Shown: piece after piece, positions 12,844 through 20,383 of the stretch
Layout: each line of letters starts with the position of its first letter
Position numbering within the stretch: the stretch's first letter is position 1
NCBI GenBank assembly: GCA_050633305.1
Contig: JBOEGF010000047.1
Location: 1-64,000 of the forward strand
Origin: Nannocystales bacterium
Lineage (GTDB): Bacteria > Myxococcota_A > Polyangia > Nannocystales > Nannocystaceae
DNA: 64,000 nucleotides
Reading direction: 5' to 3'
The notes under the pieces: generated by a model
The model's database searches: none
Told to the model about the DNA's origin: nothing
The model's input: only the letters and a program-made list of their open reading frames with translations
Position numbers and translations under genes: made by a program

Positions 12844-13041
12844 CCGAGGCCGAGGTTTCCGCCGCCGCAAGGTCGCGGGGTACGTGAAGTCCGCTCGCGA
12901 GACGATTGAAGCGGCGGGAGAGCTGGGCGATGCCACGAAGACGAAGTCCGTGCGTTTTTACGAGCTGTGCCCAACGACGTAGCTGCGGAACCCCGTGTCC
13001 GCCTGTTCTGGGCACCGGGCGCCGCTGATAGCCTAGGGCCC

Positions 13042-13572
13042 ATGGACCCCGTCTGTGCCGAGCATCCGATCGCATCAAGCTATTGGGCAGAGCCGGGCAA
13101 ACTCCTGGCGGGCCCGCACCCAGGGGTTGGGGACCGGGCGACGCAGCGCGCGACCCTGCGGGCGTTGGCCGACGCTGGCATCCGCACGGTGATCGATCTG
13201 ACCACGCCGCGCGAGCTGCCCGGAGTCCGCGTCCTGTGGGAGAAGCTCGCTCCGAACGCAGAGGAGTGGGCGTGGGTCGGCAGCCCGGTCCTCGACGGCG
13301 GGATTCCCAGCCGGGCAGGAATGCAGTTGGTGCTGGACACCATCGATGCCAGCTGCGGCCGCGGACGGCCGGTCTACGTGCACTGCATGGGCGGCCTGGG
13401 ACGTGCGGGGACCGTGGTCGCCTGCTGGTGGATTCGCCACGGCTTGGTCGAAGGCGAAGCGGTCTTCGACGCGTTGACGCGGCGCCGGGTGGGTCAGCCG
13501 AACGCACATTCCATCTCGCCGGAGACGGGCCCGCAGTTTCGTTTCATCCGGGCGTGGGCGCCGGGGGATTGA
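13042..13572 (+). CDS. Dual-specificity/tyrosine protein phosphatase
   Basis: VYVHCMGGLGRAG (HCX5R) catalytic loop; SYW...LLAG.HP; SPET..Q. Confidence 0.9.
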   Translation: MDPVCAEHPIASSYWAEPGKLLAGPHPGVGDRATQRATLRALADAGIRTVIDLTTPRELPGVRVLWEKLAPNAEEWAWVGSPVLDGGIPSRAGMQLVLDTIDASCGRGRPVYVHCMGGLGRAGTVVACWWIRHGLVEGEAVFDALTRRRVGQPNAHSISPETGPQFRFIRAWAPGD

Positions 13573-15055: not shown

Positions 15056-16188
15056 CAAGCGGTGCGTCTGCCTGGGATACTCGTTCCACGGCCCGCCACA
15101 GCCTCTCTTCGGTTTGGAGACGACATCACACGTGTGTGCGACGGTGACGTTCAGGCTAGGCGCGCTCGACATTGCCGCCTGGGTGACACGCGCCGTCCCG
15201 TTCGTCGATCTCGGCAGCTGGATCCAGTCGCTGGCCACGCTCTTGTCGGACCTGCGGGACCCCGCCGGGCGGCACGTCTTCTTCGAGGCGACACTGAAGC
15301 CCCGCTGGTGTTTCGCCGGAGCGCCACATCGGTTCGTGTCGAGTCCGCGGATGGGCAGGAACTCGCGCAGTGCAGCCACGCCAGATTACAGTCGGCGATC
15401 GAGTCCGGCCTTTCCATCATTCGGGCCGAGCTTGAGGCCCATGGCGAGCGCGGGGAGTTGTACTGGTCGGATGCGTTCGACGTCGTGGACCGCAGCTGGA
15501 AGACCGCCAGCTCGGCTCGAAAGCCCCGGCCCAGGGGCGCTTGAGCGAACGTTGGAGGAGCGAACCAGCTGCGAGCGCCGCTCGCCTCCGAAGACGCTCC
15601 GCCGACCCTGCTGGGTCGCACACGTCCCGGGCCTAGAACACAGCGTCGGGTTCGTCTTCGGTGGTTCGATGTCATGCTTCGGCTTTCCACCTCGCCAAAT
15701 CGTACGCGTCCGACGGTCCGTGTCCAACGCCACAAGCCCGGTCCTTCCTCCTGTGGCTCGTCAGGCTGCTTCAGAATCTCTCGGGCGTTGCGCCGGTGAC
15801 CTCCGCCGTCCTCCCCGAAGAGGGCCACGGCTCCCCGGCGTGTGGCGTCGAACCCGGTCTGCTCTACGTGTACAGCTGGGCGGGCATCGGCGAGCCCACG
15901 TCGGACGCCGGATACAACCGAGTACCACTCCACCGCGTTTGAGTCGCTACGTCGGGGCACGACTGGAGTGCTTCCAGCTCGCAGGAGCTCACGCTGCACG
16001 AGACCTGCGCGCCCGCCTCGACCAGGCCGTGCTCCGAACGGCCTCCGTGCTGCTACCCTCCGCGGATGCCACGCTCGGCGGTTCTGCGAGGAGCGCCGGT
16101 CCCGAAGTCCAGGGCCAAGCAACGCGGGCGGTCGGATGGCCACCCTCCCGCGAATACGGTGGTCGAGGACCGGTGGGAGCGAGAGAAG

Positions 16189-17092
16189 ATGTCTCAGTGG
16201 CTTTCCCGCTGGCTTCCATCGTCCGCGAGTGTCGAGCAGCTGGGCTCCCTCGATCTGCGCGCGGTTGTCCGAGAGTCCTCCACCATCCAACTCGATGCTG
16301 GCGAACGGCTTCGACTGGTCGCGGTCTACTTGGATGACAACGCGCTGGTGGCTGGAAGCACGAGTCTGGCGCAGTGGCAGGTGTTCTCCCGAATCTACGC
16401 AGAGGCGACGCGGCTGTGCCCCGAAGATCCATGGATCCCGAACTCCGTGGATCCCGAACTCCGTGGCAGTCACGTCGTTGAGCCTGTTCACCACGGCCGA
16501 GGACGACGAGCCGGGCAAAGATCGACTGTGGAGAATCGCCCTGGGGGCCGCCGAAACCGCGTGCGGAGTCGACGACGCGAACCCGGACCTTCGATACACG
16601 CTGGGGCACGTGCTGTATCACGTCCGCCCCAGTCGCACGACGGAGGCATTGGCTGCGTTCGAGCATGCAATCGCGCTCGACGACGGGCACGCGTGGGCCT
16701 CCCTGTACCGGGCCCACTGCCTCCACGATCTGGCTCGCTGGAACGATGCGGCACAGGCGTACGAGAGGGTCGACGCAGCCGCGTTCGCGGGACACGCTGC
16801 CTGGAGAATCGAGCTGCTGCGAGAGCAGCAGGCCTATTGCCTGCTCCGAGCCGGACATCGACAGGACGCGCTCAGGGTCTTCACCGCAGTCATCGAACGG
16901 TGCGAGGCAGCGATTTCCAGGGGCGAAGACTCGCTCAACTCCCCCGTGCTCGGTGAGCCGCCGCAGTTGCTGGTCGAGGCAGCAAAGGGAGAGCTACGGG
17001 CGGAGCTTCTCTCCCGCACCCGAGCGTTGCTCGAATCCTTCGACGAATGGCGCTCGTGGCTGAAGCTCGACGTCGACGTCGATGACGCCTGA
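16189..17092 (+). pseudogene. TPR protein split by a 16-bp tandem duplication
   Basis: N-part ends WIPNSV in one frame and resumes WIPNSVAV in the next; C-part has TPR helices (ALAAFEHAIALD, WNDAAQAYERV). Confidence 0.75.
16432..16463 (+). repeat. 16-bp tandem direct repeat (TGGATCCCGAACTCCG)x2
   Basis: Directly visible. Confidence 0.95.
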
Positions 17093-17986: not shown

Positions 17987-18454
17987 CTAGCCGGAGAGAA
18001 TCCGCTCCGCGTCCACCGCCCATTCCGGCGAACCGATGGTGAGGACGACTGCCGTCTTCGTCGTCACGGACAACGACGAATGTGGCAACGAAACGTTCTG
18101 GAACAACCACACCGTATCGACCAAAGACTCCGAATGATGGTCGGTCGTCATCACGGTCGCATCCTCGGACAGACCCAACTCGTCCCTCAACGCCACAATC
18201 ACCTCATCCGCAATGTCGTGCATGCGCGTGCACCCCGGGCCCCAAAACATCAGGTAGGACGCCCCCTGAAGCAGCAACGTGGTGAGCACGCGGTCGGCTT
18301 CTGCAACGTCCGTATCGCTGGAGTCCCACAAGACCAGGCATGCAAAGTGCTTCGAAACCGACAGCCCCTCACCGGGCACCTCCGCTGTGCACGAGACCGA
18401 CAGAGAATGCACCGCCCGGTCCAGCGAACCGCAGCCTAGGACCTTCATCGCCAT
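17987..18454 (-). CDS. Conserved hypothetical protein directly downstream of the tRNA modules
   Basis: LLLQGASYLMFWGPGCTRMHDIADE...VMTTDHHSESLVD, coding-like. Confidence 0.7.
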   Translation of the reverse strand: MAMKVLGCGSLDRAVHSLSVSCTAEVPGEGLSVSKHFACLVLWDSSDTDVAEADRVLTTLLLQGASYLMFWGPGCTRMHDIADEVIVALRDELGLSEDATVMTTDHHSESLVDTVWLFQNVSLPHSSLSVTTKTAVVLTIGSPEWAVDAERILSG

Positions 18455-18509
18455 CACAGAAGGGTACGCCGTTCCGCCAGGTTCCGAACACGCTTCTGCG
18501 CCCTGTCGA

Positions 18510-18585
18510 TGCGGGGAGCGGGGGTCGAACCCGCAAAATCTCCCGGCACTCAACCGGGCGGCTTTACCAACTTGCCCATCCCCGC
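18510..18585 (-). tRNA. Atypical tRNA-Leu(GAG), short variable arm, no CCA
   Basis: GCGGGGA/TCCCCGC acceptor + A73; D-arm GGC-AAGTTGGTAAA-GCC; AC stem CCCGG/CCGGG with loop TTGAGTG; 7-nt V region AGATTTT; T-arm GCGGG-TTCGACC-CCCGC. Confidence 0.85.
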
Positions 18586-18590
18586 GTGGA

Positions 18591-18666
18591 TGCGGAGAGC
18601 GGGGATCGAACCCGCAAAATCTCTCGGGTCTGAACCGAGCGGCTTTACCAACTTGCCCACCTCCGC
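18591..18666 (-). tRNA. Atypical tRNA-Leu(CAG), short variable arm, no CCA
   Basis: GCGGAGG/TCTCCGC + A73; same D-arm; AC stem CTCGG/CCGAG with loop TTCAGAC; T-arm GCGGG-TTCGATC-CCCGC. Confidence 0.85.
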
Positions 18667-18757
18667 GCGTGCGCGCGTGTTCGGACTCACCCCATTCGGC
18701 GATCTGGCCATGAGCGGCGAGTCCGTATTCAGTTGTTCGGAGTCCTGGCCGGGAGTC

Positions 18758-18853
18758 CTACGTAGGCGCAAGGCCCCGTCGTGCAACCAGCAGCGTCGCG
18801 CCCGGCAGGAGCCGAGTACGGAGCGGGCAGCAAACTGGGATTTGGGTCGCCAT
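18758..18853 (-). CDS. Putative leader peptide MATQIPVCCPLRTRLLPGATLLVARRGLAPT (31 aa) upstream of tRNA-Leu pair
   Basis: ATG 10 nt after -10 box; Leu codons CTC, CTC-CTG, CTG-CTG, CTT; stop lies inside a long hairpin. Confidence 0.5.
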   Translation of the reverse strand: MATQIPVCCPLRTRLLPGATLLVARRGLAPT

Positions 18854-18862
18854 TGTCCTCAC

Positions 18863-18891
18863 AACATGGTCGCGGCGCGGAAGTCTGTCAA
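18863..18891 (-). promoter_or_regulatory. Sigma70-type promoter of tRNA-Leu module
   Basis: TTGACA (18891-18886), 17-nt spacer, CATGTT (18868-18863). Confidence 0.6.
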
Positions 18892-18956
18892 ACCGAAATC
18901 AGACTCGCGAACTCGAAAGGGGTCCGTGGCCCTCAGGAAACACTGAGCAGAATCAA

Positions 18957-19029
18957 TACGGCGTCCAGGACTCGAACCTGGATCTTGGGTTTCGAACACC
19001 CGTGTCCTATCCGTTTGGACGAACGCCGC
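18957..19029 (-). tRNA. Atypical tRNA-Arg(UCG), no CCA
   Basis: GCGGCGT/ACGCCGT acceptor; D-arm GTCC-AAACGGATA-GGAC with A after GG (Arg identity A20); loop GTTCGAA; T-arm CCAGG-TTCGAGT-CCTGG; one C-A mismatch in AC stem. Confidence 0.8.
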
Positions 19030-19034
19030 AACGA

Positions 19035-19106
19035 TGCGACGTCCAGGATTCGAACCTGGATTTCGAGGTTCGCCCCCTCGTGTCCTGTCCGTTGGACGAA
19101 CGCCGC
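19035..19106 (-). tRNA. Atypical tRNA-Arg(GCG), G32/G33, no CCA
   Basis: GCGGCGT/ACGTCGC acceptor; GTCC/GGAC D-stem; AC stem CGAGG/CCTCG with loop GGGCGAA; T-arm CCAGG-TTCGAAT-CCTGG. Confidence 0.8.
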
Positions 19107-19145
19107 AATGGTTCGACGAGTTCGGTTGTGTCCCCACGTTCGTCG

Positions 19146-19292
19146 CTACGCCAGGTCGCCGTCGGGCCGGACGGACAGCGTGGGCGTTGGACGCAAGCCA
19201 CTGGCGACAGACGAACAACACATCCCCTCGAGCGCGTACCCCATGGAGGGCTCGCTGCTCGCCAAGGCGACGTCGTTGTTCGATGCGGTCAC
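19146..19292 (-). CDS. Putative leader ORF (48 aa) upstream of tRNA-Arg pair
   Basis: GTG 10 nt after -10 box (same spacing as Leu module); TAG inside 3' arm of hairpin; only two Arg codons. Confidence 0.3.
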   Translation of the reverse strand: MTASNNDVALASSEPSMGYALEGMCCSSVASGLRPTPTLSVRPDGDLA

Positions 19293-19301
19293 AGTACGAG
19301 G

Positions 19302-19330
19302 TGGCTAGCGCCGAGCTCGGGCGCTGTCAA
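19302..19330 (-). promoter_or_regulatory. Sigma70-type promoter of tRNA-Arg module
   Basis: TTGACA (19330-19325), 17-nt spacer containing palindrome CCGAGCTCGG, TAGCCA (19307-19302). Confidence 0.5.
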
Positions 19331-19416
19331 CGCGGATTCCCAACCGAGTTCAAACTGGAGAACAATTCGAACGGCTCTTCGTCGCACACACAACTGTGAC
19401 ACGCTACGCTCAGAGG

Positions 19417-20383
19417 GTGCGTACAGACGTGGACGCTGCCGTATGCCTGCGATGGCGCTTTGAGCAGCTCGCACACGCCACCTCTGACCTCGTGCGCGTG
19501 AGCCATCGGGACGATGTCACCCTCGCGCTCCTCGCCAACGCTGGCGAGTCGGGCTTCTCCACATGCTGGCCCAGGGGGTCACGCCTGCTTCTCGACGAGT
19601 TCGAGCGGGCATGGGACGCCGGCACAGGAGCGCCCGACATGCGGCTTGCCGACGCCTTCGCGGCCGCCAGCACCTCTTTCTGCGAGAACGCAGCAGCTCT
19701 GCACCCACCGGAACCCGACATCCCCGGCGGCCTCTCCTACGGAACGCTTCTGGCGGTCGCGGTCGCAGGCTCGAGGGTCGAGGGTCGAGGTTGCCTGGGT
19801 CGGTGGGGCCCGGGCGGTGCTCGTCCGCGGCCACACAGCCGAGGCGTTCACCCGTCCGCACCCCCTCCTCGAACAGGTTCTCGAGGTCGGCCTGGACCCA
19901 CGGTCGAACGCCTCATGGCCGATTGACATCCTGAGGCGCACCATCGGTCCGGGCGACACAAACGACGCCGGCCCGGACTACGCGCGCTTCGAGTTTCGCG
20001 CGGGCGATACGCTCGTCCTGCTCTCGAACTCGGGGATGCAAAAGCCACCAGTCAGCCTCAACACAATAGCGGACATGGTTGCACTCGAGCCGGACGTCGA
20101 CGCTGCAGCTTCGGCGGTGACGTCCGCCGAATACGCGAACAGCACCCCCTCGATCGCCGCCTCGCGGTACTACGCCCAAAAGGGTGATAGCGATGCACGG
20201 CGACGACATCGACGACGCGACCCCAACCGCCCTCCCGTAGACGAGCGGCTTGGAGTTCCAGCACCGCATCGCATCGCATCGCATCGCATCGCATCGCATC
20301 GCATCGACGATGCCCTCCCGGCTTCAAGTTCGCAGGTACGATCCAGGCCCTCCGCCGGGGACGGCGGTTCAAGGTGGAGGTAG
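19417..20383 (+). pseudogene. Degenerate PP2C-like phosphatase, frameshifted by 7-bp duplication
   Basis: GTLLAVAVAGSRVE|VAWVGGARAVLVRG...ILRRTIG...GDTLVLLSNSG; TCGAGGG duplicated at 19771-19790; 3' end uncertain. Confidence 0.6.
20266..20305 (+). repeat. Pentanucleotide microsatellite (GCATC)x8
   Basis: Directly visible. Confidence 0.95.

Follow-up and report, generated by a model that had tools for sequence, protein, structure and literature searches.

In a 64,000-nucleotide window of DNA (the whole stretch analysed here, 66% G+C) from a Nannocystales bacterium, the 185 bases flagged on the minus strand at positions 19107 to 19292 may well be the 5' leader of a self-contained accessory tRNA cassette that carries two tRNA-Arg genes; this leader would itself be translated. 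The cassette is plausibly one member of a family of tRNA cassettes found, on sequence comparison, in Nannocystaceae and related Myxococcota. Whether the family, with the Arg leader as a member, works as a ribosome-mediated attenuator of tRNA genes is, in our judgement, about evenly balanced. A sequence-only reading of this stretch had proposed an attenuator-like switch in the Arg leader from its alternative base pairings. That interpretation is partly supported: strongly for the family and weakly for the Arg-only copy, because the latter has no excess of cognate codons, no recognisable terminator and thin covariation.

The evidence for the family lies in the match between leader codons and downstream tRNAs. 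The survey covers 126 tRNA clusters, drawn from the whole source genome (G000; 11.0 Mb in 90 contigs), from loci in G001, G014, G015, G018, G055, G082 and G088, and from two metagenome contigs. A promoter match lies within 420 nucleotides (nt) in 62 of them, and 19 of those have a leader open reading frame (ORF) picked by a blind rule: the first ATG or GTG 3 to 45 nt after the -10 hexamer, opening a frame of at least 15 codons that ends before the tRNA. In 14 of the 19 cassettes the start codon stands 6 to 12 nt after the -10 hexamer. When the tRNA labels of these ORFs are permuted, none of 100000 permutations reaches the observed cognate content, whether the last 12, 15, 20 or 25 codons are counted. 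Collapsing homologs to 12 cassettes gives p = 5e-6, as does restricting the count to amino acids with AT-rich codons only (p = 5e-6), and a cruder blind rule, which covered 83 of 105 clusters with the housekeeping clusters among them, gives p = 0.013. The 19 leave out a cassette on contig C13 of the source genome and its homolog in G001 (no matching -35 hexamer) as well as L057 (a variant hexamer); a 15-cassette test that includes these three, with members picked by eye, gives p = 4e-5. Codons for Tyr, Lys, Glu and Asn hardly occur outside the cassettes that carry the matching tRNA. Tyr codons, for example, number 1, 3, 2 and 2 in the four tRNA-Tyr cassettes and 0 in the 15 others. The housekeeping tRNA operons of the same genomes have their promoter about 10 to 70 nt before the first tRNA and carry no leader ORF.

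Individual cassettes illustrate the match. The clearest one in the source genome (C13:26362-26900; L024) has a same-genus homolog in G001. It carries tRNA-Pro, tRNA-Gln and tRNA-His, and 14 of the last 20 codons of its leader ORF (C13:26362-26583) are Pro, Gln or His; the homolog carries tRNA-Pro and tRNA-Gln without tRNA-His, and its leader ORF has lost two of the three His codons. A similar pair is formed by a tRNA-Lys/Asn cassette (C10 of the source genome) and a tRNA-Met/Asn cassette of G082, which have homologous leaders, with Lys codons in the first and none in the second. In an array of 13 tRNAs in G055 (Pro, Leu, Tyr), 16 of the last 20 leader codons specify these three amino acids, and in G088 the leader ORF of a tRNA-Ser, Ser, Ala, Leu, Leu cassette has a run of seven Ser codons followed by Ala and Leu codons. 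Combined Arg+Leu cassettes with Arg/Leu-rich ORFs are present in G018, G082 and G088. Across the family the leader ORFs are 26 to 48 codons long and nearly leaderless, and many match two or three amino acids of a multi-tRNA operon. A sliding-window test of cognate codons in three frames, using the source genome alone, singled out the Pro/Gln/His cassette only (9/10, p = 0.002); windows rich in Arg/Leu were common by chance (p = 0.85). No flanking genes common to different cassettes were found.

The most likely mechanism would be ribosome-mediated attenuation. The leader ORFs would be translated; when the cognate charged tRNA is scarce, a ribosome slowed on the leader would allow different leader helices to form, and stalling would raise tRNA output, with more transcript reaching, or maturing into, the downstream tRNAs. 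The result would be a feedback on tRNA supply. Three cassettes of G088 have a G+C-rich hairpin followed by a U-run after the ORF, and a segment near the end of the ORF can pair with the 5' arm of this hairpin. The Ser/Ala/Leu leader of that genome folds with a z-score of -3.12. In masked folds its terminator is predicted only when the ribosome covers the stop codon, and the competing helix when the ribosome is on the Ser run, so that these modelled folds follow the logic of classical attenuation. The other two G088 cassettes form the terminator in all three states of the same simple masked-fold model and give no clean switch. In the Nannocystaceae cassettes, the Arg copy included, the last hairpin has no U-run; transcripts might end without a U-tract or through Rho, or processing might be the controlled step. 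U-tract terminators are not enriched in 20 kb of the source genome (11 compared with 9.4 +/- 3.6 in shuffles).

All features of the Arg cassette lie on the minus strand. Its promoter has a -35 hexamer at 19325..19330, which matches the sigma-70 consensus at 6 of 6 positions and is kept in two related metagenome contigs, and, after a 17-nt spacer, a -10 hexamer at 19302..19307 with a weak consensus match, which a strict promoter scan did not list. The leader ORF (19146..19292) starts 9 nt after the -10 hexamer and is thus near-leaderless. It runs for 48 codons from a GTG at 19292 to a TAG at 19148-19146, directly before the third of four pairing segments, and contains two Arg codons, CGT at codon 34 (19193-19191) and CGG at codon 42 (19169-19167); the 48-codon ORF, its end at the third segment and its count of two Arg codons had been described correctly in the sequence-only reading. 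The sensing codons of the Arg-only cassette would be at most these two. The 'Arg module' of that reading proves to be a pair of tRNA-Arg genes, tRNA-Arg(GCG) at 19107-19033 (49.5 bits) and tRNA-Arg(UCG) at 19030-18956 (53.5 bits).

Five homologous copies of the Arg leader are available for comparison. X2, X3 and X4 are contigs from three public sequencing runs that cover 18945-19330 at about 90% identity; counts for these three refer to the differences listed, 20 further differences overall (6 to 8 per contig) being outside them. L080 and L081 are the metagenome contigs, with about 74% column identity in the leader. A DNA search of the 40 nearest genomes and of 72 genomes of the order found no homolog of the Arg cassette, and weak motif matches only. 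Homology in the other copies is limited to the region from the -35 hexamer through about 10 nt after the second tRNA, and in X2 and X4 it begins exactly at the -35 hexamer (19325..19330). The Arg unit is therefore a discrete cassette. In the organism of X2 the Arg and Leu units are on different contigs, and in X3 one contig passes directly from the Arg tRNAs into the 3' part of the Leu leader, without the second promoter and its ORF in between.

Conservation along the leader is uneven. Invariant columns number 15/15 at 19281-19267, 43/75 at 19266-19192 and 71/85 at 19191-19108. The first of these blocks (19267..19281) is the most conserved part of the 5' leader, overlaps segment 1 and codons 4 to 9 of the ORF, and has no variant among the X2-X4 differences listed. 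Towards the 3' end, a conserved motif at 19146..19187, which includes a 5-base-pair (bp) hairpin and the stop codon, is common to the tRNA-Leu cassette of another genus (L002), and parts of it recur in L007 and L057. The start codon of the leader ORF is GTG, ATG and GTG in the source genome, L080 and L081 (all three aligned copies), its length and stop are identical in the three, and X3 has the same ORF length and stop. A Cys-Cys pair had been noted as common to the Arg and Leu leader peptides; it is present in the source genome and is kept in none of the five homologous copies. In the frame of the leader ORF, just past its stop, segments 3 and 4 (19113-19145) contain two Arg codons each. Segment 3 varies at one base only (19140, with A, T or G), which occupies the third position of one such codon; in X2 and X4, which lack the stop, 6 of the next 11 codons are Arg.

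The four segments lie and pair as the sequence-only reading described them. Segment 1 (19275..19282) forms 8 perfect pairs with segment 2 (19210..19219), and segment 2 alternatively forms 7 with segment 3 (19138..19145), next to an inner helix of 6 (19206-19201 with 19154-19149). Segment 3 can instead form 6 pairs with segment 4 (19114..19119), giving a hairpin of 32 nt (19145-19114) that directly follows the TAG of the leader ORF and ends 6 nt before the tRNA. Of 1000 dinucleotide shuffles, 21 contain three mutually exclusive perfect helices in a chain, each of at least 6 bp and overlapping by at least 5 nt. A total of at least 21 bp (8+7+6), that is, a chain as long as the one found, occurs in only 3 of 1000, so that shuffled sequence rarely does as well; this test was designed after the finding had been seen. 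The overall stability of the Arg leader fold is ordinary for the modelled structure, because its minimum free energy (-79.0 kcal/mol compared with -73.7 +/- 4.4 in 200 shuffles) corresponds to a z-score of -1.19 and 20 of the 200 shuffles fold as well; the Leu leader has a z-score of +0.17. Neither a T-box nor any other Rfam 15 family was found in the leader: in a scan of 18300-19500 at E-values up to 10, all matches fell on the four tRNA genes of the locus, the only ones above the gathering score being the four real tRNA matches, with four others weak and sub-threshold.

The helices differ in how well they survive among the homologs. In segment 2, 4 of 10 columns vary. The 1:2 helix loses 2 of its 8 pairs in L080, L081, X2 and X4 and 1 of 8 in X3, and these losses are never compensated. 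In the 7-bp core of 2:3, with G-U counted, X2, X3, X4, L081 and L080 keep 7, 7, 7, 7 and 6 pairs, and the adjoining inner helix is one pair short in four of the five copies; in X3 a G-U wobble replaces that pair. Hairpin 3:4 is unchanged in X2-X4 among the differences listed, has one break in L081 and shows a compensatory change in L080 (19140/19119, A-U to U-A). In sum, the 2:3 core and 3:4 persist, the latter with one compensatory change, and 1:2 erodes.

Of the switch proposed for the Arg leader, then, the helices exist and a chain of this kind is rare by chance. Against the specific 1:2/2:3/3:4 model, its first helix erodes, no U-run follows its last one, helix 2:3 never forms when the modelled ribosome covers either the stop or codon 31, and the Arg codons lie between segments 2 and 3 and not in segment 1. 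If the Arg cassette does attenuate, hairpin 3:4 would be its decision point: judging from the masked folds, a ribosome at the stop would cover segment 3 and open 3:4, and one at codon 34 or 42 would leave 3:4 intact.

A number of observations weigh against the attenuator reading as a whole. The cassettes were drawn from no more than 8 genomes and two metagenome contigs, with homologs among them. For the Arg copy, the codons themselves are the main difficulty. Its leader ORF has 2 Arg codons out of 48 in the source genome, 2 in L080 and 3 in L081, and the last 20 codons contain 2, compared with a mean of 3.15 in cassettes without tRNA-Arg. Arg is the exception to the codon match in general, the tRNA-Arg cassettes having 2, 6, 7, 4, 2 and 3 Arg codons in the last 20; at this G+C all frames abound in Arg codons, so that a match is not visible there. 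The cognate-codon excess of the family is absent from the Arg-only cassette, which is its weakest member. No U-run is found past 19114, and a terminator scan found none in the leader. The stop has become a Trp codon in X2 and X4 (two of the five homologous copies), open frames of 48 codons are common at 66% G+C, and the ratio of non-synonymous to synonymous polymorphism (pN/pS) in the ORF frame (1.17, 0.54, 0.66) is no different from that in the other two frames; by this measure no selection at the protein level was detectable in the leader ORF. The minimum free energy fold has 62 pairs, of which 15 are broken in L080 and 19 in L081 (with 2 and 0 compensatory changes) and, among the differences listed, 12, 5 and 12 in X2, X3 and X4 (none compensatory). 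The long 5' hairpin of this predicted fold does not appear to be conserved. The Arg-only copy may be a weak or degenerate sensor, because its sensing codons and switch geometry are ill-defined; within the family, its sensor would be reduced or placed differently.

Many of these points would fit a passive or decayed leader, an account that we regard as rather unlikely but to be taken seriously. The leader would be simply the precursor of a mobile tRNA cassette, removed by RNase P, with the ORF and helices as by-products of G+C content and repeats; the Arg-only copy would be a descendant of a sensing Arg/Leu cassette that no longer senses. The unremarkable fold, the lack of Arg enrichment or protein-level constraint in the ORF, the stop lost in X2 and X4 and the broken state of most changed pairs of the minimum free energy fold all agree with this, as do the Arg/Leu-rich ORFs of the combined cassettes in G018, G082 and G088 and a G at position 33 of tRNA-Arg(GCG) in the source genome only. 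A passive leader does not, however, readily account for a start codon, an ORF length and a 15/15 invariant block kept at about 74% column identity, for a 3' block conserved across genera and tRNA identities, for a three-helix chain reached by just 0.3 to 2% of shuffles, or for housekeeping tRNA operons doing without such leaders. Control by RNA alone, independent of codons, is improbable. Here a leader complementary to the tRNA would hold the precursor in a fold other than the cloverleaf or guide a nuclease, for example through segment 3, which is complementary to 8 nt in the 5' strand of each tRNA-Arg, or through 19275-19269, opposite the 3' acceptor strand of the first tRNA. The 3' seven bases of segment 2 do recur in the 5' strand of both tRNA-Arg genes, hairpin 3:4 lies next to the tRNA, and there are eleven complementary 7-mers between leader and tRNAs compared with 3.7 in shuffles (p = 0.03). 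This complementarity is only marginally above chance: 8-mers give p = 0.14, and the two tRNAs share sequence, so that matches are counted twice. The conserved leader motif is also found in cassettes with unrelated tRNAs, and the codon match of the family would be left unexplained.

Two further accounts are far less probable. A small protein gene, whose 48-residue product would have its own function and be merely co-transcribed with the tRNAs, can hardly be reconciled with a pN/pS of about 1 in all frames, a middle third free to vary and the loss of the stop in X2 and X4. Codons 4 to 9 and the last 8 codons are conserved, and two of the changes of L081 in these last 8 are synonymous, but L007 reads the same nucleotide motif in another frame, and the conservation is therefore at the nucleotide level. 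It is likewise very doubtful that the leader is a textbook attenuator of the trp type, with the overlapping frame that starts with GTG at about 19221 as the Arg sensor and 3:4 as an intrinsic terminator competing with 2:3 as antiterminator. The helices exist, the frame does contain the Arg-rich run noted in the sequence-only reading (four Arg codons in six just before segment 3), and the absence of a canonical U-tract would count for less in a genome where such terminators are not enriched anyway. The frame, however, belongs to a 120-codon ORF (18859-19221) extending across both tRNA genes. X2, X3 and X4 have lost its GTG, L081 has an in-frame stop inside the Arg run, and the purine-rich stretch before it touches the start codon at a spacing of 0 to 2 nt. 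Arg-rich off-frames are moreover the rule at 66% G+C (a window of 6/10 gives p = 0.85), and 3:4 has no U-run after it.

The tRNA genes themselves are better defined than their leader. The two tRNA-Arg genes are followed by a second cassette (18758..18892, minus strand), which has a consensus -35 hexamer (18892-18887) and a 31-codon leader ORF (18853-18758), and by tRNA-Leu(CAG) and tRNA-Leu(GAG) at 18510..18666 (minus strand), each of 76 nt with a short variable arm. All four score 49.5 to 56.4 bits, compared with a gathering threshold of 29 for RF00005. In the alignment, three double changes in the T-stem of tRNA-Arg(GCG) preserve pairing in L080 and L081, and variable columns number 8/72 and 3/73 in the two tRNA-Arg genes compared with 49/185 in the leader; the locus tRNAs are therefore under structural selection. 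The source genome has an ordinary tRNA set elsewhere (tRNA-Leu of 82 to 87 nt; tRNA-Arg with anticodons ACG, CCG, CCU, UCU and UCG), and the four genes at the locus are therefore extra, non-housekeeping genes. They do not amount to a tRNA array unit, which is defined, in the cited account, by at least 20 tRNA genes at a minimum of 2 per kb (PMC4758250).

These tRNAs have several unusual features. U33 is nearly universal in tRNAs. The base at position 33 of tRNA-Arg(GCG) (19074, minus strand) is G in the source genome only, L080, L081 and X2-X4 all having U33; this copy may therefore have lost some function, or else the G could be an artefact of assembly. The anticodon loop of tRNA-Leu(GAG) (18547-18553) has a pyrimidine at position 37, which is unusual for a tRNA. 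The 76-nt tRNA-Leu type, with a Leu-type D-arm and a short variable arm, was found in three genome records among 185,579 species searched, and a short-armed tRNA-Leu(CAG) is also present in a 360-kb viral contig of low G+C with a tRNA array (L030, 2969-3047). A scan of viral sequences gave no match to the tRNA-Arg pattern. The stop codons of the tRNA-Leu leaders lie inside a perfect palindrome of 10 to 12 bp (18758-18770; about 1440-1452 in L002), which could be a protein-binding site rather than an RNA structure. Elsewhere, G055 (complete, 13 Mb in a single contig) has runs of 18 (L082, C1:11830000-11834300) and 13 (L083, C1:11593600-11596000) low-scoring tRNA genes, the second of which alternates Leu and Tyr and has the Pro/Leu/Tyr-rich leader ORF; it also has three tandem 71-nt tRNA-Cys genes after an apparently decayed fourth copy (L084, C1:10926400-10927300).

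Searches of the neighbouring ORFs against PHROGs, NCBIfam and Pfam found no phage or defence context. The only families found are a DSP-type phosphatase (12967-13572, plus strand), of a kind found in polymorphic toxin systems, a TPR protein (15842-17092, plus strand), a DUF7684 protein (17987-18450, minus strand) immediately after the tRNA-Leu genes, a hydrolase and a P450. Most other ORFs between 13 and 23 kb have no family match. This is also the case at 19396-20383 (plus strand), where the G+C frame plot changes frame near 19720 between two overlapping ORFs, which points to a single, divergently transcribed gene carrying a frameshift, or else to a sequencing error.

Some of these properties have counterparts in known systems. 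In gamma-proteobacteria, the synthetase genes of pheM-pheST are controlled by a leader rich in the codons of their own amino acid. The cassettes similarly place a gene of the translation apparatus behind a cognate-codon leader; the pheM-pheST product is a synthetase and charging is sensed, whereas the product of the cassette is the tRNA itself. The general principle is that of the leader-peptide attenuators of amino-acid operons (trpL, hisL, leuL, pheL, thrL, ilvL), as outlined in PMC1183508 and PMC3082878. With these the cassettes share a short 5' ORF, cognate codons (at the family level), mutually exclusive helices and, in G088, a hairpin with a U-run. They differ in targeting tRNA genes and not biosynthetic enzymes, in having near-leaderless ORFs of 26 to 48 codons that often match two or three amino acids and, in Nannocystaceae, in the absence of a U-tract; the Arg copy in addition has no cognate codon run.

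Closer in setting are the polycysteine leaderless short ORFs of mycobacteria, described in the cited preprint as cysteine-responsive attenuators (bioRxiv 10.1101/834739). As far as that account goes, they have in common with the cassettes a high G+C content, a leaderless first cistron, cognate codons as sensor and no need for a classical terminator, and they differ in controlling protein-coding cysteine operons, whereas the cassettes carry tRNAs for many amino acids. Phage tRNA sets, according to the summary in PMC10264068, replace host tRNAs attacked by anticodon nucleases. Like the cassettes they are, on this description, extra tRNAs with unusual anticodon loops or arms; the cassettes differ in being chromosomal, with no phage genes nearby, and in having their own sensor-like leader. 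A link of the cassettes to tRNA-targeting toxins is a conjecture. In our literature search, no description of tRNA genes under the control of attenuation or of leader ORFs was found. One candidate, an attenuator-like Phe-rich leader of the tRNA-Phe gene pheV of Escherichia coli, was rejected: in the K-12 record a promoter lies about 10 nt upstream and an ORF of this kind is absent, and the literature search gave none.

The family is compact (about 200 to 350 bases plus the tRNAs), varied in amino-acid identity and present in a complete genome (G055), and it has built-in controls, since a difference in one tRNA between cassettes goes along with a difference in the matching codons. The attenuation idea is therefore directly testable. 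The family also provides an annotation rule for small ORFs and accessory tRNAs in high-G+C genomes, and it raises the question of spare tRNAs as backups against tRNA-targeting toxins. Tentatively, and with slightly less confidence than we place in attenuation itself, the cassettes of Nannocystaceae and relatives could be seen as portable units in which spare, often atypical tRNAs stand behind a mini-gene written in their own codons. The speed of decoding of this mini-gene would switch the replacements on, for example after starvation or attack by tRNA-cutting toxins. Leader-peptide attenuation is the textbook control of amino-acid synthesis and of a few synthetase genes, and growth-rate control of promoters is regarded as the main determinant of bacterial tRNA gene expression. 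If the attenuator reading is true, the cassettes would represent direct feedback attenuation of tRNA genes, in which a slowly decoded codon would raise the supply of its own tRNA.

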